IMG/VR virus record: IMGVR_UViG_3300032157_000019
Location: 1-44,393 of that record
Source: a virus
Reading direction: 5' to 3' (one strand)
Length of the DNA: 44,393 bases
In this document: positions 15,498 to 44,393 of the stretch, piece after piece
Layout: each line of letters starts with the position of its first letter
Numbering within the stretch: position 1 is the first letter of the stretch
The notes under the pieces: generated by a model
Database searches by the model: none
What the model was told of the DNA's origin: nothing
Seen by the model: only the letters and a program-made list of their open reading frames with translations
Position numbers and translations under genes: made by a program

Positions 15498-15556
15498 CAA
15501 CAAATCGCCGCAACCGCTTGACAATATCGGGGATTTCGCACCGGAAAGCAATCATA

Positions 15557-15575
15557 AACTCACCGTGGGTGAGTT
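15557..15575. promoter_or_regulatory. Operator (AACTCAC-N5-GTGAGTT)
   Basis: Perfect 7+7 dyad aactcaccgtgggtgagtt in the divergent intergenic region 15446..15680. Confidence 0.65.
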
Positions 15576-15639
15576 ATTTTTCTTGACCAGCCATGCAACT
15601 CCGCATACGGTGCGTCAGGCCTAGGACTAAAGACTAGGG

Positions 15640-15680: not shown

Positions 15681-16220
15681 ATGGGCAAGCTGGACGGCAA
15701 GCTGTCTTTTGAGGACGTGCGGCGCATATTCAACTATGACCAGCGGACCGGCGAACTCCGCTGGAAAATTCGCATGGGTTGCCGGGCGTTGCCCGGCTCG
15801 CGCGCCGGCACCCAGAAGCCAAGAGGCCATTGGGAGGTTAAGGTCCACCGCGTGCGCTACCAAGCCCACCGCATCATCTGGCTATGGATGACGGGCGTTT
15901 GGCCGAAGGAAATGATCGACCACAAGGATTGCGACCCGAGTAACAACAGGTGGAGCAATCTGCGCGAGGCGACTGCACAGGAGAATATTCGCAACCGCCC
16001 CGTGATGCGTACGAATGAAGTCGGCCTGAAGGGCGTCAGTCCGCAGTTCCGCAATAAGGACCCCAAAACCGGCGTTCGGCCGCGCACCGGGAGATGGAAA
16101 GCGCAAATCCGGATCAATAGCCGCGTTGTGCACCTTGGGTTCTTCAAGACGCCTGAGGAGGCACACGCTGCCTACAAAAGGGCCGCCGATCAATTCTACG
16201 GCGCGTTCGCGAGGGCATAG
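15681..16220 (+). CDS. HNH homing endonuclease with AP2-type DNA-binding domain
   Basis: HNH motif IDHKDCDPSNNRWSNLREATAQENIRN. AP2-like motif GVS...GRWKAQIRINSRVVHLGFFKTPEEAHAAYKRAA. Confidence 0.9.
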   Translation: MGKLDGKLSFEDVRRIFNYDQRTGELRWKIRMGCRALPGSRAGTQKPRGHWEVKVHRVRYQAHRIIWLWMTGVWPKEMIDHKDCDPSNNRWSNLREATAQENIRNRPVMRTNEVGLKGVSPQFRNKDPKTGVRPRTGRWKAQIRINSRVVHLGFFKTPEEAHAAYKRAADQFYGAFARA

Positions 16221-16222
16221 CC

Positions 16223-16855
16223 ATGAAAGTGATGGCGGTAGCTGCAACTAAAGGGGGAAGTTGCAAGAGCACCCTTTGTGCAAACCTGGGTGTGCGCGCC
16301 GAGCGTGATGGTCCAACCGTCCTAGTCGACTACGACCCGCAACTGAGCCTGTGTCGCTGGCGCGAGCTGCGCACAGAGGAGGGCGGCCCATCCGTTATCG
16401 AAGGCTGCGGCGATGGGGCCGTGGTCGATGTCCGCCGGCTTCGCGGCAAGGCCGATTGGGTATTGCTCGACATTCCGCCTGCCACGCAACACTTGATCCG
16501 CACCGGCATCAAGGCCGCCGATCTCGTGCTTATCCCGGTGAAGACATCCCCGCTCGACCTGGAGGCAATCGACCCGGTTCTTGAGCTTTGCGAGGAGCAC
16601 CGCAAGCCCTTTGCGTTCGTCGTTGCGATGTTCGATCCAAAGTGGAGGCTCGCTGCCGAGGTCTTCCCCTACTTGGAGCGCAAGGCGCCCGGCCGCGTGC
16701 TGCGCGAGGTCTTCAGCTATCGCCAGGCGTATGTCGGATCGATGATCGCAGGACACACCGGCCCCGAGTACAACGCAGATGCGCGCCAAGCGAGGGCTGC
16801 GCGCGATGAGGTCGATGCTCTGTGGGCGGCCATCAGGAAGAGGCTTGGAGCGTAG
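16223..16855 (+). CDS. parA: ParA/ParF-like partition ATPase (small, type Ib-like)
   Basis: 210 aa with deviant Walker A ATKGGSCKST. Also DYDPQ and Walker B-like VLLDIPP. Confidence 0.85.
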   Translation: MKVMAVAATKGGSCKSTLCANLGVRAERDGPTVLVDYDPQLSLCRWRELRTEEGGPSVIEGCGDGAVVDVRRLRGKADWVLLDIPPATQHLIRTGIKAADLVLIPVKTSPLDLEAIDPVLELCEEHRKPFAFVVAMFDPKWRLAAEVFPYLERKAPGRVLREVFSYRQAYVGSMIAGHTGPEYNADARQARAARDEVDALWAAIRKRLGA

Positions 16856-17636: not shown

Positions 17637-18680
17637 CTAGGTTTGGGAGTCTTCGTTCGGCTTCTGTACGCGCAACTTGAGTATGGCCGCGCTCGCCAAC
17701 TGCCGCTGAGCGACTTCCTTCGTATACCGCTCAACCTCCTTCAGCGACTTGTGGCCGGTGACAGACATGATCTCGTGTTCGGAGCATCCGGCCTCCGCGA
17801 GGCGACGAGCTGCAGCCTTGCGCAGCCCGTGGGCCACGCACTCTTTCGGGAGCCCTGCAGCCTCGATGCTCTCTCCCATCCATCGGCTGATCGTGTCCGG
17901 TGTGTAGGCGCCGCGATGGCCTGTGACCAGGATGAGGTTGAGGGTCGGCATCGCGTCGAGCGCCTTGCGCAGCTCGGGGTGGATGGCGATTGCCAGCTTG
18001 GTCCCCGTCTTATGCTGGGTGAGGCCGATGGTGTTGCCGGCGATGTCCGCCCGGCGCATCCGCGACACGTCCCCAATGCGCTGGCCGGTGTACAGAAGCA
18101 GAGCGAACGCAAGCCGCTCCATCGTGCCGAGCGCCCAGCGCGCCTCGTATTGGGTGATCTGATCCTCGGTCCAGGTGTGATGCTCGCCGATCTTGCGCTT
18201 TTTGACGCCTAGCGTGGGGTCTTCTTTGATGCCCCACGAAGCGCGCGCCATGGCGAACCGGACCAGCCGGCGAAAGCACTGCAATAGGTTGTTCGCGGCG
18301 CCGGGTGTGCGGCGGTCCATCATGCGTTCAACGTGCTCTCGGGTCATGCCGCGCACGGGGCGGTGTCCGATGTCTTCTGCCGAAAGGGTGCTCTCGATCA
18401 CGTAGCGGTATAGATCGCGGGATGTCTGCGCCAAGTCAGTGTAAGCGGCGCTGGCGAAGTATTCTTGCGCTAGGCGGTCAAAGGTGCCGACATCCCCGCG
18501 CAGTCGCGCCCGCGCCGGGGCTGTGCCGGTCAGCGCCGCGGCGTAAGCGTCCGCGAATTCCTGGCTGCCAGGCGCACCGGGGAGCGAGATGCGAACGCCG
18601 CGGGAGCGACGGAAATAGTAGCGCACACAACCGTGGCGGTCGGCGAAGCGATCGACGTACTTGAGGCGAAAACGCGTCAC
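17637..18680 (-). CDS. int: Tyrosine integrase
   Basis: 347 aa with catalytic-domain motifs HGLRKAAARRLAEAG and VTGHKSLKEVERYT. The N-terminal arm-type region is YYFRRSRGVRISLPGAPGSQEF. Confidence 0.95.
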   Translation of the reverse strand: MTRFRLKYVDRFADRHGCVRYYFRRSRGVRISLPGAPGSQEFADAYAAALTGTAPARARLRGDVGTFDRLAQEYFASAAYTDLAQTSRDLYRYVIESTLSAEDIGHRPVRGMTREHVERMMDRRTPGAANNLLQCFRRLVRFAMARASWGIKEDPTLGVKKRKIGEHHTWTEDQITQYEARWALGTMERLAFALLLYTGQRIGDVSRMRRADIAGNTIGLTQHKTGTKLAIAIHPELRKALDAMPTLNLILVTGHRGAYTPDTISRWMGESIEAAGLPKECVAHGLRKAAARRLAEAGCSEHEIMSVTGHKSLKEVERYTKEVAQRQLASAAILKLRVQKPNEDSQT

Positions 18681-19551: not shown

Positions 19552-19564
19552 AAGCAATACCTCT

Positions 19565-19583
19565 AACTCACTGAGCGTGAGTT
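19565..19583. promoter_or_regulatory. Operator (AACTCAC-N5-GTGAGTT)
   Basis: Perfect dyad aactcactgagcgtgagtt in the 65-bp gap between the divergent regulator genes. Confidence 0.7.
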
Positions 19584-19616
19584 TGTCAACAGGTTAAAGG
19601 GACTGCGGGTGCTGAT

Positions 19617-19907
19617 ATGGCGCGCAAGGTAATTCAGGCCACCCCGCATGCCGATATCGGGGCCAGATTGAAGGCCGCTCGGCTTAGCCTTGGCCACGAT
19701 CATTTGGGTGACTACGCCGAAAATGCGGGGATAAAGCCCAACGCCTACTCGCAGAACGAGACCGGCGTGAAGCGCATCGAGGTCGATGCGGCCCTGTCCC
19801 TCAAGAGGAAATACGGCGTCACGCTCGACTGGATATACGCGGGTGATGAAAGCTCGCTGCCGTACAAATTCGTCAACGGCATGGCCCGCCTTAGAAAGCA
19901 GAAGTAA
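19617..19907 (+). CDS. XRE-family HTH transcriptional regulator (CI/Cro-type)
   Basis: IGARLKAARLSLGHDHLGDYAENAGIKPNAYSQNETGVKRIEVDAALSLKRKYGVTLDWIYAG is a canonical HTH_3 pattern. Confidence 0.85.
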   Translation: MARKVIQATPHADIGARLKAARLSLGHDHLGDYAENAGIKPNAYSQNETGVKRIEVDAALSLKRKYGVTLDWIYAGDESSLPYKFVNGMARLRKQK

Positions 19908-19963
19908 CTCCTAAATCCTTTATAGGATGCGTGCTGAGTGGCGCGGCGGCAACGCCTGCGCCT

Positions 19964-19982
19964 AACTCACTGCGCGTGATTT
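19964..19982. promoter_or_regulatory. Operator, imperfect (AACTCAC-N5-GTGATTT)
   Basis: aactcactgcgcgtgattt, with 13 of 14 dyad positions. Its centre is 30 bp from the next operator. Confidence 0.55.
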
Positions 19983-19988
19983 TCCCGC

Positions 19989-20017
19989 TTGCAAACTCAC
20001 TGCCGGTGAGTTAGATT
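19989..20017 (+). promoter_or_regulatory. Predicted early rightward promoter
   Basis: TTGCAA (19989..19994), 17-nt spacer, TAGATT (20012..20017). It lies upstream of the first early gene at 20100. Confidence 0.5.
19994..20012. promoter_or_regulatory. Operator (AACTCAC-N5-GTGAGTT)
   Basis: Perfect dyad aactcactgccggtgagtt that fills the spacer of the predicted early rightward promoter. Confidence 0.7.
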
Positions 20018-20894: not shown

Positions 20895-21179
20895 ATGACC
20901 GCCAAGCTAATCAACCTCTCCGACCACTCCACACCGAGCAAGCCAATGCCCCCTGATCCGAAACTGACGGATCACCAATTGCGCGCGCTCCGCATTCTTG
21001 CGGAGGCGGGCGGGCTGCCGTTGGTGTCCCCGGTCAACGGCTATTCGGTGGTTCTTGATACATCCGTCCCCGAGCTGTTGACCTGGGTTGAACTTCTCTC
21101 CCTCGGCTGCATCTACGGCGGCTCTGGTCGCATTTACCCGACCGACCTGGGGCGCTCTGTGATTGGGAGGCGGACGTGA
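20895..21179 (+). CDS. Hypothetical protein
   Basis: Internal ATG (MTAKLINLSDHS...) of track ORF 20760..21179. A winged-helix-like segment LTDHQLRALRILAEAGG is present. Confidence 0.5.
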   Translation: MTAKLINLSDHSTPSKPMPPDPKLTDHQLRALRILAEAGGLPLVSPVNGYSVVLDTSVPELLTWVELLSLGCIYGGSGRIYPTDLGRSVIGRRT

Positions 21180-21442
21180 CGCGCGAGTGGCTTCCAATCA
21201 ATACGCTGCCGGCGCCGGGTTTGCGCCCGGGCCGCGTGTTCGTCCTGGTCGAAGGCGAGAGGGATCACAGCGGGCTTCGCTGGCTTCGGCAGGAAGCTGG
21301 GATAGCCAGCACGTGGAACGATGGGTTCGATCCGGCCGACATTCGCCATATCGAGCTGAAGGGCGACATGGACCGAGGTTCCGGCGCGGTGACGCACTGG
21401 CTTCCAATCGAACTGCCCCGCTTCCCGGAGCGCACACTATGA
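21176..21442 (+). CDS. DUF551-like phage protein
   Basis: N-terminal REWLPINTLPAPG...VFVLV and C-terminal THWLPIELPRFP fit the DUF551 pattern. GTG start. Confidence 0.55.
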   Translation: MTREWLPINTLPAPGLRPGRVFVLVEGERDHSGLRWLRQEAGIASTWNDGFDPADIRHIELKGDMDRGSGAVTHWLPIELPRFPERTL

Positions 21443-21666
21443 TCGACCTCCAACCCACAATGTCCATCCAGCACGACGCAGAGGCGGAGCGTGGATTTGC
21501 TCACTGGCATCGCATGGAGGCAATTCGCGATTGGTGCGTGGAGTTTCGCGCCCTGCAGGAGGCCGCGAGGCATGCGGCGCGCGAGGAGTTTCGCGCTGAG
21601 CTGAACGCGGAAATCCGCGACGCTGGGCTGTTCGTTATCAACCTATGCAACTACCGGAGGCGGTGA
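21439..21666 (+). CDS. Hypothetical protein
   Basis: Internal ATG (MIDLQPTMSIQHDAEAERGF...) overlaps the previous stop as ATGA. Confidence 0.5.
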   Translation: MIDLQPTMSIQHDAEAERGFAHWHRMEAIRDWCVEFRALQEAARHAAREEFRAELNAEIRDAGLFVINLCNYRRR

Positions 21667-27254: not shown

Positions 27255-27440
27255 ATGCCCCGCTACATCCAACGCATGGACGGAGAATGGGTGCACTGGT
27301 CACGCAGGGGACACCTGATCGCATGTTGCTCATGCGGACTTGTGCATCTCATGAAACCCCGCGTTCGCAAGGGCAAGGTCGAGATACAGGCAACGCGCAT
27401 GCCCAGGAATACGGCGGGGCGGAGGAGGAGGAGGAAGTAG
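27255..27440 (+). CDS. Hypothetical small basic protein
   Basis: ATG 27255 follows AAGGAG. Translation: MPRYIQRMDGEWVHWSRRGHLIACCSCGLVHL.... Confidence 0.45.
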   Translation: MPRYIQRMDGEWVHWSRRGHLIACCSCGLVHLMKPRVRKGKVEIQATRMPRNTAGRRRRRK

Positions 27441-27441
27441 G

Positions 27442-27639
27442 ATGAGCACACACAGCAAGCGATTGCGGGCGATGCTGAATAGCCCGCACCCGGACACGCT
27501 GGCGCGGGACTGCATGTATCACGTTTTGCGTGGCAAGCGGCTGGAGGCAGAGCTACGCCAGACGCGACTACAGTTCTGGGTTGCGATGGTCGCGGTGGGG
27601 TTTCTGGTGGGCCATATAGCGCACCGGCTGTATCATTAG
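27442..27639 (+). CDS. Small protein with C-terminal TM segment
   Basis: 65-aa ORF with the hydrophobic tail FWVAMVAVGFLVGHIAHRLY. Confidence 0.5.
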   Translation: MSTHSKRLRAMLNSPHPDTLARDCMYHVLRGKRLEAELRQTRLQFWVAMVAVGFLVGHIAHRLYH

Positions 27640-27640
27640 A

Positions 27641-27658
27641 CCTCGCCCCACGGCGAGG
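27641..27658 (+). terminator. Short GC stem-loop after the 27442..27639 gene (weak terminator candidate)
   Basis: CCTCGCC-ccac-GGCGAGG, a 7-bp stem lying 1 nt after the stop. No U-tract. Confidence 0.3.
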
Positions 27659-27734
27659 AGACACATGCGAGTCTGGTGCGTCTCATATAAATAGAAAACC
27701 ATTGTGATGCGTCTCACAAAGACGGAAAGGCTAG

Positions 27735-28295
27735 ATGGGACTCATAATCGGCTACGCCAGGACATCCACCGTTGACCAGGTGGCTGGCTTCGACGCACAG
27801 GTTCGTGACCTCACCAACGCGGGGTGCACGAAGATATTCTCGGAGCAGGTCAGCTCGCGCGACGACCGACCGGAGATGGAGAAGGCACTCGCCTATCTCC
27901 GGGACGACGACGTTTTGGTTGTGACCAAGATCGATCGCCTCGCTAGATCGATGCGTGATCTAGTTTCGATCGTGGACAGGATCGCCGGGGTCAAGGCGTC
28001 GCTGCGAATTCTGGCCATCGGCCTCGATACCAACACGTCTACGGGGCGACTGATCCTGAACGTGTTCGGCTCGCTGGCAGAGTGGGAGCGAGACCAAATG
28101 CTTGAGCGGCAACGCGAAGGTATCGCCAAGGCAAAGGTTGAGGGGAAATACAAGGGCCGCAAACCCAGCGTCCCAGCTGACAGGGTTCACGCCCTTCACA
28201 AGAGCGGGATGGGTCCCGCTGCCATTGCCAGAGAGCTGAAGGTGGGGCGGGCGTCTGTGTATCGCGCAATCGCCGCGCGGCGCACCCTCTCATGA
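27735..28295 (+). CDS. Small serine recombinase (resolvase/invertase family)
   Basis: 186 aa. N-terminal catalytic motif IIGYARTSTVDQ. Also VVTKIDRLARS and GRLILNVFGSLAEWERDQMLERQREGIA. The C-terminal HTH is GPAAIARELKVGRASVYRAI. Confidence 0.95.
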   Translation: MGLIIGYARTSTVDQVAGFDAQVRDLTNAGCTKIFSEQVSSRDDRPEMEKALAYLRDDDVLVVTKIDRLARSMRDLVSIVDRIAGVKASLRILAIGLDTNTSTGRLILNVFGSLAEWERDQMLERQREGIAKAKVEGKYKGRKPSVPADRVHALHKSGMGPAAIARELKVGRASVYRAIAARRTLS

Positions 28296-28345
28296 TCGCC
28301 AAGGAATGGGGCGTGAGTCATACAACTATTGCGAGGGCGAGATGA
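28295..28345 (+). repeat. R1a: 51-bp left cassette flank
   Basis: atcgccaaggaatggggcgtgagtcatacaactattgcgagggcgagatga. It matches 28692..28742 at 50 of 51 positions. It begins at the last base of the recombinase stop codon and ends in the ATGA of the cargo start. Confidence 0.9.
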
Positions 28346-28572
28346 GCGGATGGCAGTCCATCGAAACCGTGCCGCGGGATGGGAGCGAGGTTTTGCTCGG
28401 CTTTGCCGGCACCGCCAACATGGATTTCTACCGCTGGTATGGCGAGAATGCCTGCGACCCCACCCTGATCCGCGACATTGAGATTGACGGCTGGGTTGAT
28501 CGGGCGTCCGACCCTCCGCATACCCGCCCCACGCACTGGATGCGTATCGGGCCTCCACATTCCTGTGGATGA
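28342..28572 (+). CDS. DUF551-like protein (cassette A cargo)
   Basis: MSGWQSIETVPRDGSEVLL...THWMRIGPP fits DUF551. The track ORF starts 36 nt upstream (28306) inside R1, which would add MGRESYNYCEGE. Confidence 0.55.
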   Translation: MSGWQSIETVPRDGSEVLLGFAGTANMDFYRWYGENACDPTLIRDIEIDGWVDRASDPPHTRPTHWMRIGPPHSCG

Positions 28573-28644
28573 CGGGTTGCGCAGCCCGCTGATGTTCAGT
28601 TGTATGCACGTATGGATGCGGTCTTAGCATGTACAATGTGGGAC
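28559..28644 (+). repeat. R2a: 86-bp right cassette flank
   Basis: attcctgtggatgacgggttgcgcagcccgctgatgttcagttgtatgcacgtatggatgcggtcttagcatgtacaatgtgggac. It matches 28918..29002 with 1 mismatch and a 1-nt indel. Confidence 0.9.
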
Positions 28645-28691
28645 CGCCCTTGAGTCGATGGAGAGCGTGGCCTGAAATGACCACACGCTTC

Positions 28692-28742
28692 ATCGCCAAG
28701 GAATGGGGCGTGAGTCATGCAACTATTGCGAGGGCGAGATGA
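28692..28742 (+). repeat. R1b: second copy of the left cassette flank
   Basis: Direct repeat of 28295..28345, with an A to G difference at 28719. Confidence 0.9.
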
Positions 28743-28918
28743 CCGACGTAGAGCTTGCAGCCGCGCTGGCCGCCGAATGCGAGGCGTGCGCCAAGATCGT
28801 TGAGTTGGACGCCGGCCATGGCCGTATGTTCGAGAGCCAGGTGGACAAGGAGACCCACATCCGAGCGCTGGCCCAAATCGCACAGGCCATTCGTGACCGC
28901 GGCAAGTCCGCTCGCTAA
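28739..28918 (+). CDS. Small acidic helical protein (cassette B cargo)
   Basis: Translation: MTDVELAAALAAECEACAKIVELDAGHGRMFESQVDKETHIRALAQIAQAIRDRGKSAR. The track ORF starts at 28703 inside R1, which would add MGRESCNYCEGE. Confidence 0.45.
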   Translation: MTDVELAAALAAECEACAKIVELDAGHGRMFESQVDKETHIRALAQIAQAIRDRGKSAR

Positions 28919-29002
28919 TTCCTGTGGATGACGGGTTGCGCAGCCCGCTGATGTTCAGTTGTATGCAGTATGGATTCGGTCTTAGCATGTACAATGTGGG
29001 AC
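28918..29002 (+). repeat. R2b: second copy of the right cassette flank
   Basis: Direct repeat of 28559..28644. It starts at the last base of the cargo B stop codon. Confidence 0.9.
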
Positions 29003-29095
29003 GGCGGCCTGATCGGGCTTATTGGCCTCGTGACCGGGTACTTTCTGCGCGCGGTATTCGATAAATTACGGGCGCATCGCCCATTGCGGAGGTAG
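28970..29095 (+). CDS. Small TM peptide (41 aa) initiating inside R2b
   Basis: Translation: MDSVLACTMWDGGLIGLIGLVTGYFLRAVFDKLRAHRPLRR. Third-position GC is about 70%. The equivalent ORF in R2a stops after 13 codons. No clear RBS. Confidence 0.3.
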   Translation: MDSVLACTMWDGGLIGLIGLVTGYFLRAVFDKLRAHRPLRR

Positions 29096-29097
29096 TC

Positions 29098-29295
29098 ATG
29101 CGAGATACAGCGGCCGACGAACCCAACGACCTGCTGGAGCTTGCCGCGGCAGCCCATGAGCTAGCCGGCGAGATGGATGCTCACACAGAAGTTGAGCACA
29201 GTGGCTCGGCTGCTGACCTGGCTACGGCGGTTGCGGCGCTGGATGAGCTGGCGGCGAGCGTGGCGAGGCTCAGGCAGCAGCTAGCCGGATCGTGA
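29098..29295 (+). CDS. Hypothetical acidic protein
   Basis: 65-aa ORF with a GGAGG RBS 5 nt upstream. Its 3' end overlaps, convergently, the end of the tailspike-like gene. Confidence 0.5.
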   Translation: MRDTAADEPNDLLELAAAAHELAGEMDAHTEVEHSGSAADLATAVAALDELAASVARLRQQLAGS

Positions 29296-31456
29296 AGCGC
29301 AGCGGCGTCACGCTCTCACTGAACGCAACCCAGGCGTCCCATTCTTCTGTCGGCGTAGCGTAAATATCAGGGTATAATTTTGCCCACCCGTTCGGGCCGG
29401 TCAGCACATAAGCAGATGGATACTCGCCGCGAGCAAGCCAACGCGAGTTAATGTTTTTGGTGATATCCCCGATGGCCGGGGCAAACTTTGTTGCCAGCCG
29501 AAACGCATTGCGAAGCGTCATCGAATTAACGAACGTGGCCGTGCCGCCGCTGGTGTAGGTCGTGAAGCCCGTACTGTTCACGTCGATGGTAACCAGCCGA
29601 TTATTTTGATCGACGGCCACAACCGCATATGTGTTGCCGTTCAACTCTGTCATGCCGCCAACTGAGGCAAGCGAAAGGCTGGAGCCGACAGGGGGAAAAT
29701 TGCTAGATACGGCAAACGTTAGGACACACTGCGCCGCCTTGCTGGCCCCGGTGACGGTGGCGGACATATTGCTGGTCAGAAAGTCGGGCGAGTAGCCACC
29801 CTCGTAGGGTGCCATCCGCAAGCCGAAGCCATCCGCCCACGTCCACCAATTGGAAATCATCGCATTGAGGCTGATCGACGTGGCGTCCGCGCGGGCTGCG
29901 ACATAGGCGTTGGCAAATGCCTGTTGGTCTTCCGAGTCTTCCAGGCTCATCTCATAGGCTGCCTGCAGCTCTTGAGTGGCGGTGTTGCTTGTAAGGTTCC
30001 AATACATCGCAGGCGAAACGTGCGTCGCATAGTCGCTCGCCGGGTCACCGCCGTCCACCGAGACATGCTTTCCACCGAGGCGTGGATTGCTGGCGCTTGC
30101 GTTTGCGCTTGCCGACTCCTGCACGCCACACATGACCTGATAGGGCCAGCCCTCCTTTGGCCCCGTCGGATTGTAAACGGTGTGGATCGCCTTGCCCATG
30201 AGACTGAGCACGCGGCCATACCAATCGTGCGTCTGGAAATCGGCCCCTCCCCATCCCGCACGCACTTTCGCCTTGTTCCAGCCGTATCGAGTGCTGTGGA
30301 AGCCGCCCCCTGAGTTCCAAACTTCATTGGCTGGCTCTATGCGTGGCGCCATCCATGCCGCATCGTTGGCCGGGTTCTCCGTGAATGCCTTGCATGTAGC
30401 CGCCAGCTCGGCCGCATAATCGGTCAGCGGATCAAGCCCAAGATACGGCACATGCAGCCACGGATGAGCACCGATTTCCTTGCACAGTCGCAATATGAGT
30501 GAAACCGGAACGCCTGACTGAACACCGACGATATTGCTGCTGGTGACGCCGCCGCCAAACAGTAGCCACGCATCAAAGTCTTCATCATAGACCAGAGTAG
30601 ACACCTTGCCCGCAGCGGGCCGCAGATTGGTGTGCAGCTCGTCTCCGTATTCGTTCGCGATCGTGACATCGCCAGTTTCATTGACGTTGAGCGTCGGCGT
30701 TGTCCCGGACGACTCCGCATTCCAGGTCACGCACACTGTCGCCTTGTCGGCCAGCACGAAGCCGGTTGCATCGACGCTGAACGCGTCACCACTGTTCGTG
30801 GTCTCACCCTTATACATACCGGGCGGCAGCCAAATCCCGTTTTCCGAACCGTAGGAAATCACACTTTCGGGCGTCATGTGCGCCCACACGCTTGTGTTCG
30901 ACGACCCGTTCGGCATCCAGTCTAGAAACCTCTCGACGCCAAAATGCGCGCAAGCTGCCTTGAAGACGGGCGCAAACACTTCGCCTGCGTCGACGCGCGC
31001 CTCGTCGTCCGCATGAAATAGTTCCAGGTGCGTGATGGGATCGGCCACGTTGATGTCGGTAATCTCCAGAAACAACTGGAGCGCACCCTCGGAGGCGTCC
31101 GAGCCCGTTGGCGTGAACACAAACCGCCCGTTCGCGCCACTCGTGCTGCCGCTCACAATGGTATGGCTTGTTGCGGAAAGGCGCACGAGGCCAGAGCCAG
31201 GATCACCAACCCACCGCACCACCCAATTGCCGGGGCGGCTGTCTTGGTTAGGTATCCACAACACACGCCGGATAGCCGCAGACAGTGTGGTCGGGTATCC
31301 ATCCGCATTGAGCGTATCGGGCGCCGGTTGAGCGCCGCTTCCGGTGTAGGACCAAGCCCCTGATGTTTTGACGAAGTTCAGGAACGGATAGTCCCGACCA
31401 CCCCAATACGTCGGGAACCACAGGTTCAGTTGCGCGCGCCTCCCGTTGTGCGGCAT
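29270..31456 (-). CDS. Tailspike-like protein with putative clan GH-A glycoside hydrolase (polysaccharide depolymerase) domain
   Basis: 728 aa. IEPANEVWN resembles the Asn-Glu acid/base motif, and MAPYEGGYS resembles a nucleophile-Glu strand. An inserted beta-domain reads GGMTELNGNTYAVVAVDQNNRLVTIDVNSTGFTTYTSGG. It is the last gene of the late block. Confidence 0.6.
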   Translation of the reverse strand: MPHNGRRAQLNLWFPTYWGGRDYPFLNFVKTSGAWSYTGSGAQPAPDTLNADGYPTTLSAAIRRVLWIPNQDSRPGNWVVRWVGDPGSGLVRLSATSHTIVSGSTSGANGRFVFTPTGSDASEGALQLFLEITDINVADPITHLELFHADDEARVDAGEVFAPVFKAACAHFGVERFLDWMPNGSSNTSVWAHMTPESVISYGSENGIWLPPGMYKGETTNSGDAFSVDATGFVLADKATVCVTWNAESSGTTPTLNVNETGDVTIANEYGDELHTNLRPAAGKVSTLVYDEDFDAWLLFGGGVTSSNIVGVQSGVPVSLILRLCKEIGAHPWLHVPYLGLDPLTDYAAELAATCKAFTENPANDAAWMAPRIEPANEVWNSGGGFHSTRYGWNKAKVRAGWGGADFQTHDWYGRVLSLMGKAIHTVYNPTGPKEGWPYQVMCGVQESASANASASNPRLGGKHVSVDGGDPASDYATHVSPAMYWNLTSNTATQELQAAYEMSLEDSEDQQAFANAYVAARADATSISLNAMISNWWTWADGFGLRMAPYEGGYSPDFLTSNMSATVTGASKAAQCVLTFAVSSNFPPVGSSLSLASVGGMTELNGNTYAVVAVDQNNRLVTIDVNSTGFTTYTSGGTATFVNSMTLRNAFRLATKFAPAIGDITKNINSRWLARGEYPSAYVLTGPNGWAKLYPDIYATPTEEWDAWVAFSESVTPLRFTIRLAAA

Positions 31457-34834: not shown

Positions 34835-34863
34835 TTGACAAGTAATGTGTGGTTTGCTATGTT
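34835..34863 (+). promoter_or_regulatory. Predicted promoter of the antisense HNH gene
   Basis: TTGACA (34835..34840), 17-nt spacer, TATGTT (34858..34863). The ATG at 34870 follows 6 nt later, so the transcript would be nearly leaderless. Confidence 0.5.
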
Positions 34864-34869
34864 TCGCAC

Positions 34870-35376
34870 ATGCCAGCTAAACGCGATCCCGCCGCCCGTT
34901 TTCACGAGAAATACAAGGTCGTCCCAGAGACTGGATGCTGGGAGTGGACCGGATATCGCTATCACGGGTACGGCATCCTCTCGGTCGGGCGTCACCCGAC
35001 CAAGGCCCACCGTTTCTCTTACGAGATCGCAATTGGGCCGATCCCAGACGATAAAATCGTCTGCCACTCCTGCGACAACCGGGCGTGCGTGAACCCGCGC
35101 CACCTGTTCGTGGGCACATACACCGACAACAACATTGATCGGCTTCGCAAGGGTGGCCATCACTACGCCAAGCGCACGGCCTGTCATCGCGGCCACGAAT
35201 TCACGCCCGAGAACACGCAATGGCGCAAGCGCGGCGCCGCCACGACTCGCGTCTGCCTCCAATGCCGCCGCGATGACGGCCGCAGAAACGCCCGGAGTTG
35301 GCGAAGCAAGAACCGGGTGCGCCACAACGCCTACATTCGCGAGTGGGCCAGGAAGCGACGAGAGGCGGCCGTATAG
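34870..35376 (+). CDS. HNH homing endonuclease (antisense within late operon)
   Basis: Motifs [14 protein letters not shown]...[46 protein letters not shown]. The track start at GTG 34849 is also possible. Confidence 0.85.
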
Positions 35377-35378
35377 GT

Positions 35379-36353
35379 TCATAGCTTGATGATCTTCGTG
35401 ACGAGCCACGTGGGCGGCAGGTTGGAGTGAGCGCCACCCGAACCGGCGTTCTGGATGGAGATGCCTGTTGCGGCGGCATTGACTGTGATGGTCTGGGCAA
35501 CGCTGGCGGCACCCGTGCCGGTCTGAAGCGGGCTGGCCGTCAAGTCCACGCCGGCATAGTTGCTGGAGGCGGTGTGCGCGTGCGTCGGGTCTGTGACGCC
35601 GTGCGAGTGGGTCGGCATTTCCGTGGTGGTCAGGGTGTGCGTCTCGGTGCCGCCCGATGCACCCAGCGTGGTTTCATCCGTTATGACCGTGCCGAGGCGC
35701 CCTGCGGCGCTGTTGCCCATGTCATCCACGCCGGCCGCAACGCGACCGCGGAAGTCAGGCAGGGGCAGCCGCTTGTGCGCCGCGAAGTCCGCAGCCGCAT
35801 TGGCACCACGCGATGAGCCGGCACCTGCGCTGTCCTGAATGGCCAGGATGCTGTTGGAGTATTTCTCCCACAGCAGTGTGAACAGGTCTTCCGTGTCCGC
35901 ATTGGCGCGCTCGGTGCCGCCAGACGTGCCATCGCCGATCGTGCGGCCGTTGGCGCGCACCCAGCCCGTAGGGGCCGTGTCACTCACGTAGTCGAGCAGG
36001 GTGCCGATTGGCATCAGCGGCGTGCCGTTCTGGCTCACGCGGCCAGTGACGCCTAGCCCCGTGGCGCTGATGTCGAGCACCTTGGCGCCGTTGACCGAGA
36101 AGCCGAAGTTGTTCGAACCGATGCGGTAGAGGCCGCCGCTCGGGTCAGCGCTGAACGTGATGCCCGGCAGCGCCTCCGTGCCGCTCGCGCCCTTCATCTG
36201 GCCGGTCATGGCGGCCTGGCCGTCTCGCGGGAGCGATCCGGTCAGCATGCTCGCCACGTCCGTGAAATTCGCGTTCATAGCCGAAGCACTGATGAGGGTG
36301 CTCGGGGTAAAACTGTTTGTGATCGAGGCTGTGCCAGACCCGTTGCGGGGCAT
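35379..36353 (-). CDS. Tail fibre protein with phage tail-collar (MdpB-like) domain
   Basis: N-terminal NGSGTASITNSFTPSTLISASAMNANFTDVASMLTGSLPRDGQAAMTG. Collar-type motifs PTGWVRANGRTI...DLFTLLWEKY...LPLPDFRGRVAAGVDDMG. Confidence 0.85.
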   Translation of the reverse strand: MPRNGSGTASITNSFTPSTLISASAMNANFTDVASMLTGSLPRDGQAAMTGQMKGASGTEALPGITFSADPSGGLYRIGSNNFGFSVNGAKVLDISATGLGVTGRVSQNGTPLMPIGTLLDYVSDTAPTGWVRANGRTIGDGTSGGTERANADTEDLFTLLWEKYSNSILAIQDSAGAGSSRGANAAADFAAHKRLPLPDFRGRVAAGVDDMGNSAAGRLGTVITDETTLGASGGTETHTLTTTEMPTHSHGVTDPTHAHTASSNYAGVDLTASPLQTGTGAASVAQTITVNAAATGISIQNAGSGGAHSNLPPTWLVTKIIKL

Positions 36354-39981: not shown

Positions 39982-40805
39982 TATGCGGTCCTCCGTAGGC
40001 CCCCGGAGGCCCACCCTCCGGCCGCCGCCCCGCCCGCTCCCGCGATAGCCCCGAGCATGGCGTTCTGCCTATCCGCCTTCAGCTGCGCTTGCTGCAACTG
40101 CGCCTGATAGTTGCTGTTCACGAGGCCGGTATAATCGACCGGAGCCACGCCGGGCGACGGCGTGGTCGTGAAGTTCGGATTGGTGGGGGTGGAGTTGCCG
40201 AGCAGCGCGTTCAGCTCAATCAACGGCTGGTTGCGCTCGGTCATCTGCTCGTTGATGGACTGGTTGCGGCCCGTGAGCAGGAGTTGGTTGTAGGCGTCGT
40301 TTTCCTGACGCCCAAGCTCATCGCGCTTGGCGGCATAGGCATTGCTGCCGGGCCGAATACCGCGGTCAAGAAGCTGCTGCTCCAGGGCCGCCGACTTGTC
40401 GGCGAGCATCGGGTCGAGCCGCTTGCGGCCCAACTCCATCAGGCGAGCCTCGGTCGCCTCGTTGCCAAGCGTCAGAGGCGAGGAAAGCGTGCTGTCCACG
40501 CGGTCGAGCTGCGCGCCGGCAATCGAGCCCATCTTCTGCTGGGTCTGATTGTACTGGTCGTAAAGCGCCTGCTCGCCGGGCGAGAACGATGTCTCCGCCT
40601 GATACCGAGGGGTCCCGTCTTGAAAAGTTCCAATCTGCGAATATTTGAGGTTGCCATATGGCGTGATTTGGTCTACCTGTCCTAGCTGCGATTGCGTAAT
40701 CGCAGTTTGGCGGTTCATCGCCTGTTGCGCGTCTGCTGTGGCCTTAGGGTCTGGCGGCGCGGGCGTTTTGGGCGAATTCAATGGCAACCTCCCATGGGAG
40801 AACAA
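39981..40805 (-). CDS. Internal virion protein (putative), Gln/Asn-rich
   Basis: 274-aa track ORF with a TTG start. A likelier start is TTG 40781, 7 nt after GGGAG. The C-terminus is Gly/Ala-rich (AIAGAGGAAAGGWASGG). Confidence 0.5.
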   Translation of the reverse strand: MFSHGRLPLNSPKTPAPPDPKATADAQQAMNRQTAITQSQLGQVDQITPYGNLKYSQIGTFQDGTPRYQAETSFSPGEQALYDQYNQTQQKMGSIAGAQLDRVDSTLSSPLTLGNEATEARLMELGRKRLDPMLADKSAALEQQLLDRGIRPGSNAYAAKRDELGRQENDAYNQLLLTGRNQSINEQMTERNQPLIELNALLGNSTPTNPNFTTTPSPGVAPVDYTGLVNSNYQAQLQQAQLKADRQNAMLGAIAGAGGAAAGGWASGGLRRTA

Positions 40806-40806
40806 G

Positions 40807-41562
40807 GTGGATAAGTCACTGCTGACATGGCAAGCGATTGCCTACTTCTGGTCCAAGGTGGACGTATTGGCTGCGCGCGACACGCGCTGCTGGAATTATC
40901 GCGGCGGGAAGAACAGCCGCGGCTACGGCAAGCACTCTCTGCCCTCGGAGAATGGCCCGGCTACTGAGGGGGCGCACCGAATAGCGTTCGCCATTGCGGC
41001 TGGCATCTCGATGACCAGCGAGGACTACATCTGCCACCACTGCGACAACCCTTCGTGCTGCAACCCCGCCCACCTTTTCAAGGGCACCGCGCTGGAGAAC
41101 AACCGGGATGCATACGCCAAGGGGCGAAACCTAATCCCGAGCCAACGGCCCGGTTTCATTCCCGTACACGTGCGAAACCCTCACCACTACGCACACCGCG
41201 GCGCCGACTCGCCTAGCGCGAAGCTGACAGAGGATCAGGCATGGTCCCTTCTGCACGAGAGGGCCAACGGGGCTTCAGTTCCTGATCTCGCTGCCAAATA
41301 CGGCATGAGCAAAGAGGGCGTTGGTGGCATCTGTGCAGGCAGAAAGTGGCGCCACCTGTTTGAACAGCTCCCCGCAGAAGTCAGGGAAGCCATTCGCGAC
41401 ACCCGGAACCAGCACAAGACCTACAAAAAGCTCAGCCCCGACACCCTGGCTGACATCCGCGCCCGCTTAGCGGCCGGCGTAAGTGTTCGGGCATTAGCCG
41501 AACGCCACAAGGTCTCAAAGGCGCTTATCTACCAAATCAGAAGCGGGCGAGCGCACGCCTAG
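40807..41562 (+). CDS. HNH homing endonuclease with C-terminal HTH repeats (antisense within late operon)
   Basis: GTG 40807 lies 6 nt after GGGAG. Motifs CWNYRGGKNSRGYG...GAHRIAFAIAAG...ICHHCDNPSCCNPAHLFKGTALENNRD. Two HTH-like segments are present (VPDLAAKYGMSKEGV and VRALAERHKVSKALIYQI). Confidence 0.85.
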   Translation: MDKSLLTWQAIAYFWSKVDVLAARDTRCWNYRGGKNSRGYGKHSLPSENGPATEGAHRIAFAIAAGISMTSEDYICHHCDNPSCCNPAHLFKGTALENNRDAYAKGRNLIPSQRPGFIPVHVRNPHHYAHRGADSPSAKLTEDQAWSLLHERANGASVPDLAAKYGMSKEGVGGICAGRKWRHLFEQLPAEVREAIRDTRNQHKTYKKLSPDTLADIRARLAAGVSVRALAERHKVSKALIYQIRSGRAHA

Positions 41563-44266: not shown

Positions 44267-44393
44267 TCCGTAACGGCCATGACGATCGCCATAGATAGCC
44301 AGCCAACCGACAGGGTGGACACGGCTTGGTGATATGGCTCAAAGGCCGCGCAACCGGCCGCGGCAACGGCGCACATTAAATTCAGAAACACTT
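44267..44393. repeat. Terminal direct repeat, copy 2 of 2
   Basis: Identical to 1..127. It begins immediately after the start codon (44264..44266) of the minus-strand gene 43541..44266. Confidence 0.9.

Follow-up and report, generated by a model that had tools for sequence, protein, structure and literature searches.

The 'linker' idea of the original modular-evolution view was put forward for the mosaic joints of phage genomes. In the mosaics of temperate phages, modules are exchanged by relaxed homologous recombination that Rad52-like recombinases drive (De Paepe et al., 2014; PMC3945230); such phage enzymes act on short and diverged homologies, and the minimal pairing length of Redβ is 23–27 bp (PMC3945230). 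A second described arrangement is that of the promoter-early stem-loop (PeSL) cassettes of T4-type phages (Arbiol et al., 2010, PMC2839356; PMC4122927). Here we analyse an array found at positions 27735 to 29095 of the viral IMG/VR record IMGVR_UViG_3300032157_000019, the whole of which, with its 44,393 nucleotides (nt), is referred to as the window. In this array, the gene of a small serine recombinase is followed by two units of the same build, namely, a left flank (R1), a small gene that differs between the units (cargo A or cargo B) and a right flank (R2). The array is probably a tandem duplication holding two different alleles of one locus, brought about by ordinary phage recombination, with the neighbouring recombinase as a bystander.

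The locus resembles the mosaic joints in that one slot, bounded by short conserved sequences where genes meet, is filled by unrelated genes, in that the phage encodes a Rad52-family protein, and in that the perfect runs within the flanks, of 27 to 50 nt, are within the range of Rad52-like enzymes. It differs from them in that both alleles stand in tandem in a single genome, so that an extra non-homologous junction is required. With respect to three other systems, namely, PeSL cassettes, integrons and invertase switches, the array fits none of them. First, as in PeSL regions, ORFans (orphan genes) lie between short, near-identical direct repeats in a hyperplastic region, no dedicated recombinase is needed, and single genes are predicted to be deleted or to form circles when the repeats recombine. 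However, PeSLs are intergenic elements with many copies spread over hyperplastic regions, and combine a sigma-70-like early promoter with a stem-loop terminator, whereas R1 and R2 are present in two copies each, have no detected promoter and consist of coding fragments. Second, integron arrays also align promoterless small genes in direct orientation, with repeated boundaries, beside the gene of a site-specific recombinase. Integrons, in contrast, use a tyrosine integrase and one attC per cassette, whose imperfect inverted repeats fold when single-stranded, whereas this array adjoins the gene of a serine recombinase and comprises just two units, each with a left flank unlike its right one; among R1a, R1b and R2 only R1b folds (z = −3.2 against shuffled sequence). 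Third, the Gin, Hin, Cin and Pin DNA-invertase switches, which stand beside phage tail-fibre genes and in which inverted crossover sites enclose alternative gene ends or a promoter, share with this locus the enzyme family, the proximity to tail genes and an enclosing inverted repeat of 26 nt (22 of 26 positions matching), but R1 and R2 are direct rather than inverted repeats, and inversion would provide no alternative end for the tail protein.

The anatomy of the array, all on the plus strand, is as follows. The two copies of R1 (R1a, 28295..28345; R1b, 28692..28742) are 51 nt long and identical at 50 of 51 positions, with A versus G at position 28 as the sole difference. Those of R2 (R2a, 28559..28644; R2b, 28918..29002) measure 86 and 85 nt, and comprise a perfect core of 50 nt, a 1-nt indel and then a tail of 35 nt with a single mismatch; the longest perfect run in R1 is 27 nt. 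Both repeats occur twice in the genome, in direct order, bracketing two unrelated small genes, and a search with blastn-short found no third copy of either one in the genome, diverged copies included. Two matches of R1 were obtained in none of 100 shuffled versions of the window. Identity begins and ends within one base at all four edges, and the centres of the units cannot be aligned with each other. Each R1 ends in ATGA, such that the following cargo starts within its last bases, and carries a GAGGG ribosome-binding site 4 nt upstream of the cargo ATG. On the right-hand side, R2a covers the final 14 nt of cargo A, while R2b begins at the last base of the TAA stop of cargo B. In all of this, coordinates and mismatch counts included, the original prediction proved exact.

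What the flanks are made of is central to our argument, since they read as pieces of genes. R2 consists of some 52 nt of non-coding DNA, including the palindrome CGGGTTGCGCAGCCCG, followed by the first 33 nt of an open reading frame (ORF) of 41 amino acids. Downstream of R2b this ORF runs intact (28970..29095, plus strand), with its first 11 codons inside the repeat, and it encodes a small protein with one hydrophobic helix and without any family match in Pfam. Its GC content at third codon positions (GC3) is gene-like; indeed, this ORF, cargo A and cargo B all show the coding signature of the genome, with GC3 well above GC2. In R2a, where the same 11-codon start had been described as cut short, the ORF is confirmed to be aborted, as a stump of 13 codons (MDAVLACTMWDRP and a stop). 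By its sequence, this stump reads as the truncated relic of a membrane-protein gene.

A similar reading applies to R1, whose sequence suggests the 3' terminus of a lost helix-turn-helix gene, here termed X. The frame that closes at the TGA of R1 reads IAKEWGVSH(T/A)TIARAR; 16 codons of it would be left in R1a (IAKEWGVSHTTIARAR), abutting the recombinase gene, and about 32 in copy b. In unit b the frame runs as …PPLSRWRAWPEMTTRF-IAKEWGVSHATIARAR up to the stop, where IAKEWGVSHATIARAR is the second gene-X tail, contributed by R1b, and it stays open leftward across the whole of the unique 47-nt spacer that separates R2a from R1b (28645..28691), whose final residues in this frame are …PPLSRWRAWPEMTTRF. 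The 3' end of the gene-X frame reads …FIAKEWGVSHATIARAR. Matches to Pfam families in the 37-residue frame were all sub-threshold, namely HTH_50 (0.003), HTH_36 (0.012), Trp_repressor, HTH_38 and TetR_N, and all of them fall on residues 16–36, which correspond to the helix-2-turn-helix-3 part of the fold; the HTH_36 alignment spans residues 10–36 and thus reaches back into the spacer. The frame also aligns weakly, running through the spacer, with Cro/CI-type proteins of the Bradyrhizobium phage ppBjS10J-1. The spacer is therefore probably further 3' sequence of gene X. It does not significantly resemble what follows R2b (p = 0.30), what precedes R1a (p = 0.74) or the rest of the genome, and since it matches nothing else, R1 and R2 are all that the units have in common. 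Other origins were considered for these pieces. R1 as the tail of an HNH endonuclease of this phage that ends in a helix-turn-helix was rejected because the tails differ; the idea that R1 ends a recombinase allele since replaced was dropped, the helix-turn-helix resemblance being only generic; and the spacer showed no similarity that would make it a degenerate form of the membrane-protein gene or of the 3' end of the recombinase gene.

The end of cargo A provides a further clue as to how the units were joined. Cargo A (28342..28572, plus strand; 76 residues; GC3 of 0.73) receives its last four residues, HSCG, and its stop from R2a. Only one homologue, P0122, was found among 5.8 billion proteins, with 67% identity, and it ends in …THWMRIEPPA where cargo A ends in …THWMRIGPPHSCG. 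Since P0122 stops one residue past the conserved …MRI(E/G)PP, the HSCG end of cargo A was donated by R2a, as far as this comparison goes, and it would thus be a sign of a junction within a gene and not of a precise cassette boundary. The contig that carries P0122 contains no R1- or R2-like sequence. The earlier description of cargo A as DUF551-like could not be substantiated, as it has no Pfam match even at E ≤ 10, and only P0122 obtains a sub-threshold match to DUF551 (E = 0.047). As for cargo B (28739..28918, plus strand; 59 residues), this is an ORFan with gene-like base composition (GC1, GC2 and GC3 of 0.70, 0.45 and 0.77), for which an exhaustive HMMER search of 1.84 billion representatives returned only cargo B itself and a spurious repeat translation. 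The latter, P0124, was rejected as a homologue because it is a translated tandem DNA repeat, and so was the N-terminal extension present in the relative of cargo A, with which no alignment could be made. Cargo B had been called acidic and is only mildly so, with 10 acidic versus 8 basic residues by direct count.

Two side observations concern the family of cargo A. The contig with the sole homologue (L010, from the Logan assembly of SRR26786834) has a second small ORF on the opposite strand (2129–2347) with the same N-terminal motif (MMVWKPIAEYPKD…), and both ORFs belong to a chain of small ORFs with ATGA overlaps. In the window, a distant paralogue of cargo A lies at 21188–21418, inside an early ORF of 167 amino acids at 21163–21666 (31% identity over 81 positions, E = 8e-4 in a local search), and the small-protein family of cargo A is therefore present twice in this genome.

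The history that we propose on this basis starts from an ancestral locus with the helix-turn-helix gene X, one small accessory gene, an intergenic hairpin and the small membrane-protein gene, in that order; in related phages the neighbours would be the same two genes, and the slot that they enclose would hold a different accessory gene, A or B. First, a non-homologous join would have connected a position 33 nt into the membrane-protein gene with one some 98 nt short of the end of gene X, placing the A and B units in tandem and leaving both the truncated ORF of R2a and the fragment made of spacer plus R1b, with the R2a/spacer boundary as the junction. Second, either the parents of this join already differed in their cargo, or the cargo was swapped later by a double crossover in the 51-nt and 85-nt flanks. 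Third, the recombinase module would have replaced the upstream copy of gene X except for its last 16 codons, leaving R1a to abut the recombinase stop codon. We infer both the order and the nature of these three events. As expected of a duplication, truncated copies of the neighbouring genes are found at the internal junction, and the R2a/spacer junction is found nowhere else in the genome. That two alleles of one locus stand in tandem had been offered as the mundane alternative to a recombinase-serviced hotspot, and this part comes close to the anatomy. The unequal homologous crossover invoked to produce them does not, because neither the spacer nor the sequence outside R1 and R2 is shared, and a simple crossover of this kind cannot build the array; at least one non-homologous junction and a recombinase replacement event are needed.

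The homology-dependent steps would have a likely catalyst in the Rad52/22-family single-strand-annealing protein of this phage (21713..22687, plus strand; Pfam Rad52_Rad22, 9.9e-38), and the perfect runs of 50 nt in R2 and 27 nt in R1 reach the minimal pairing length of Redβ (PMC3945230). The array should accordingly be unstable, which is a prediction of the model: annealing of R1a with R1b would delete 397 bp and leave cargo B only, and annealing of R2a with R2b would delete 359 bp and leave cargo A only.

Relatives of this locus were sought in several collections. INPHARED phages were searched by blastn with 5 kb; IMG/VR with exact R1 and R2 words and with a degenerate version of the N-terminus of the membrane protein; GTDB genomes, metagenomes of the Joint Genome Institute (JGI) and IMG/VR with a codon-degenerate R1; and JGI metagenomes and GTDB genomes with a 22-mer of R2. 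The JGI metagenome collection evidently lacks the contig of this window, as the scan did not return it. In these searches, by exact words or codon-degenerate patterns, R1 and R2 were found nowhere else in INPHARED, PLSDB, IMG/VR, JGI metagenome contigs or GTDB genomes, and blastn against plasmids gave matches only in the catalytic domain of the recombinase. The occurrence of R1 and R2 around other genes elsewhere had been set beforehand as the decisive check for exchangeable cargo, and not a single case appeared in any DNA collection searched. Anchoring the search on the RNA ligase and on the 728-residue and 470-residue proteins of the phage recovered either nothing or matches of about 30% identity as candidates for related loci, and the 90%-identity clusters of the proteins of the locus all hold only this contig and a Logan re-assembly of SRR9694912.

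Several points weigh against a tandem duplication of two alleles. The helix-turn-helix evidence for gene X lies entirely below curated thresholds, and the gene-X frame in spacer plus R1b does not show the GC3 > GC2 signature of the genome, although 33 codons are too few for this comparison to be informative. Both R1 relics are still 98% identical, which fits a recent origin but would equally fit selection on R1 as a functional element. The model also requires two or three separate events at one spot. Finally, no close relative was found in IMG/VR, JGI metagenomes, GTDB genomes, INPHARED, PLSDB or a collection of 15 billion proteins, and neither single-unit ancestors nor an intact gene X were ever observed in the searched collections; the phage being a singleton, the ancestral single-unit state is inferred and not observed.

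Among the alternatives, the one that fares best, albeit unlikely, takes R1 and R2 as conserved linkers for repeated, homology-driven exchange of ORFan cassettes within a population of related phages, in the manner of PeSLs, with mini-circle intermediates of 359 or 397 bp; the array would then be a momentary state of a continuing, possibly selected shuffling and not a single accident. Two different genes do stand between the same flanks in the array, R1 gives a ribosome-binding site and a start codon to whichever gene follows it, and R2 opens with a short hairpin-forming palindrome just past each cargo. Moreover, a circle made of R1, cargo, R2 and spacer that integrates at R1 or at R2 would yield exactly the structure observed, the phage has a Rad52-type recombinase, and homologous recombination suffices, with no recombinase dedicated to it, for ORFans flanked by PeSLs to form mini-circles (PMC2839356). 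However, only two copies of each repeat exist, with no diverged extras, and no sigma-70-like promoter was detected in R2 or anywhere in 27400–29500, in a scan that covers the sigma-70 consensus only. R2 has no more structure than its shuffled versions (z = +0.8 and +1.3), and its hairpin, the only palindrome there and with a 6-bp stem, is not called by a terminator scan. In addition, R1 and R2 are absent from every other sequence searched, P0122, the only homologue of cargo A, has different flanks, and the flanks themselves read as gene fragments and not as dedicated elements. The broader possibility that the units are mobile ORFan cassettes, excised as circles of about 360–400 bp and re-inserting at R1 or R2 in related phages through the Rad52-type protein or with the aid of the serine recombinase, we regard as doubtful; if true, a temperate alphaproteobacterial podovirus would possess a means of shuffling genes akin to PeSLs or integrons.

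A very improbable reading, to which the proximity of the recombinase invites, is that this enzyme recognises R1, R2 or both, and excises or inserts the units as cassettes. The enzyme itself is what it had been taken for, a resolvase/invertase-type serine recombinase of 186 residues encoded right before the array (27735..28295, plus strand). Pfam assigns residues 4–139 to the catalytic domain (PF00239 Resolvase, 1e-37), with a YARTSTVDQ motif at residues 7–15, and residues 141–181 to a C-terminal DNA-binding domain (PF02796 HTH_7, 1.3e-8), and the protein matches PHROG 125, 'DNA invertase' (1.3e-55). Its gene directly abuts R1a, whose left edge coincides with the stop codon of this gene, the repeats are in direct orientation around a variable centre, and R2 contains a 16-bp near-palindrome with a GC/GC centre. 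However, crossover sites of small serine recombinases are 26–30 bp long and consist of two inverted half-sites of 12–13 bp around a central dinucleotide, with the helix-turn-helix domains bound at the outer positions. A dyad scan found R1 to be without dyad symmetry (best 5 of 8), and the symmetry of R2 to be limited to the inner 8+8 positions of its 16-bp palindrome, with the outer positions unmatched; both repeats are therefore unlike such sites. Resolvases and invertases resolve two functional direct sites efficiently and are poor at intermolecular insertion, and a stable array would thus be unexpected. Furthermore, the edge of R2 falls inside cargo A but past the stop of cargo B, which is imprecise for a site-specific reaction. 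The recombinase-serviced hotspot of the original prediction is thus unsupported, as the flanks read as gene fragments without site symmetry and without occurrence elsewhere, and the relatives of the enzyme, described below, stand in unrelated contexts.

The nearest relatives of the recombinase are 62–65% identical to it, a plateau of generic Pin-like enzymes, some of them encoded on Methylobacterium plasmids and others in the genomes of Hyphomicrobium and Chelatococcus. In three examined relatives of comparable length, the neighbouring genes are unrelated to those of the array (McrA/HNH nucleases, a Cas9-like protein and a HEPN protein), and no direct repeats or repeat-flanked ORFs were found near these three; no such arrays accompany the inspected homologues. 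A literature search likewise found no phage cassette arrays described as being served by small serine recombinases. Upstream of the recombinase gene, direct reading and the dyad scan delimit a putative control region (27641..27718, plus strand) that neither R1 nor R2 resembles. It opens with a hairpin, CCTCGCC-CCAC-GGCGAGG (27641–27658; 7-bp stem), directly after the stop of the preceding gene, continues with an AT-rich stretch that contrasts with the roughly 62% GC of the genome, and closes with a perfect TGTGA-N6-TCACA palindrome (27703–27718) just ahead of the ribosome-binding site of the recombinase. The region 27640–27734 also contains two direct TGCGTCTCA motifs. By its layout, this region may be the enzyme's own site or an operator, and it suggests that the recombinase gene entered as a self-contained module together with its control region.

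The 26-nt inverted repeat mentioned above (27262–27287 and 30375–30400; 22 of 26 positions) was reached by none of 60 dinucleotide shuffles, and it encloses the recombinase, the array and the 3' half of the gene of a 728-residue tail protein. Its right arm lies in frame at codon 353 of this gene (ATCKAFTEN); in the left arm the sequence is ATSNAWTEN, with a stop 18 residues into it. We rejected this repeat as a functional invertase switch, since it has no internal dyad symmetry and does not extend further, and inversion at it would only truncate the tail protein after 18 residues, with no alternative C-terminal module. It may be the relic of an old invertible segment of the tail gene.

An assembly chimera, in which two co-occurring strains, one with cargo A and another with cargo B, were merged into a false tandem, is highly improbable, even though the source is a metagenome contig. 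The window ends in an exact terminal overlap of 127 nt (positions 1–127 equal 44267–44393), which, following JGI assembly practice, we take to reflect a final k of 127, and both repeats are shorter than this implied k. An independent Logan assembly of SRR9694912 at k = 31 gave two contigs, both 100% identical to the window, one ending 30 nt into the 50-nt core of R2 and the other beginning 30 nt before the end of that core. The core, identical in both copies, is where the k = 31 assembly breaks, which is the behaviour expected of a true repeat at that k. A simple bubble between A and B alleles would have no path from R2 to R1, whereas the unique spacer physically links R1b to the R2a tail, which is recognised by its two diagnostic differences, and this joint must exist in the reads. 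The tandem order as an assembly artefact is therefore unlikely.

That the repeats are kept for expression, with R1 as a translational-coupling leader and R2 as an attenuator with a leader peptide, duplicated because each accessory gene needs them, has about as little to commend it, for although ATGA overlaps chain the recombinase to a 17-codon ORF and this to cargo A, with the same arrangement before cargo B, a GAGGG stands 4 nt ahead of each cargo ATG and R1b folds better than shuffled sequence (z = −3.2; 1 of 200 shuffles), R1a (z = −1.4) and R2 fold no better than chance, no other gene of the operon uses these elements, and the truncated membrane-protein ORF in R2a is left unexplained.

The proposed tandem duplication of two alleles must finally be seen within the genome that hosts it. 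The identical 127-nt ends imply that the window is a circular assembly and a complete genome of 44,266 bp, which belongs to a temperate podovirus, probably of Hyphomicrobiales. The closest deposited relative of its portal is that of phage ppBjS10J-1 (44% identity), whose genome is organised alike: several small hypothetical genes follow one another in the corresponding position, and there is no recombinase. Structural and lysis genes occupy the minus strand (portal, large terminase, ejection proteins, tail protein, amidase and lysozyme), and early genes the plus strand at about 15.7–29.3 kb (HNH endonuclease, ParA, repressor region, the Rad52/22-family annealing protein and RNA ligase). A tyrosine integrase is encoded on the minus strand (17637–18680), 10 kb from the array; the phage is therefore temperate with an integrase of its own, and the gene of the serine recombinase is accessory. 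The array occupies the extreme end of the early operon, converging on the tail genes, where the last early ORF (29098..29295, plus strand; 65 residues, with a strong GGAGG site) overlaps the convergent, minus-strand gene of the 728-residue tail protein at their 3' ends by 26 nt (29270–29295). No terminator-like structure was detected between the converging early and tail operons.

Other features of the genome are recorded here as observations in their own right. An operator-like palindrome, CTAACTCAC-N4-GTGAGTT, occurs in four copies (15555–15576, 19563–19584, 19962–19983 and 19992–20013), three of them grouped around a repressor-like gene (19617–19907; phrog_2328), and this cluster is probably the lysogeny switch. 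The ParA-like partition ATPase (16223–16855) coexists with the tyrosine integrase in the same phage, whose prophage may either integrate or persist as a plasmid. Homing-type endonuclease genes of the HNH_3 family number three (15681–16220, 34849–35376 and 40645–41562), two of which are plus-strand genes within the minus-strand structural operon; that at 34849–35376 overlaps an opposite-strand ORF chosen by the Logan gene caller, and that at 40645–41562 has a helix-turn-helix at its end. The longest inverted repeat of the genome, with 37 nt and 84% identity (35728–35764 and 41444–41480), runs between a tail-protein gene and the helix-turn-helix end of an HNH endonuclease gene, and its arms code for similar peptides (LPDFRGRVAAGV and LADIRARLAAGV).

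The array thus sits in the variable far end of the early operon of a temperate phage, and it serves as a reminder that adjacency to a recombinase gene is no evidence of a functional link. Its value is that of an illustration and not of a new mechanism, and it would gain greater weight only if the units were shown to circulate as cassettes. Should the tandem duplication hold true, this locus would offer a snapshot, within a single genome, of the swapping of orphan genes, with both alleles present together, the scars of the process still legible and the annealing enzyme encoded in the same phage.

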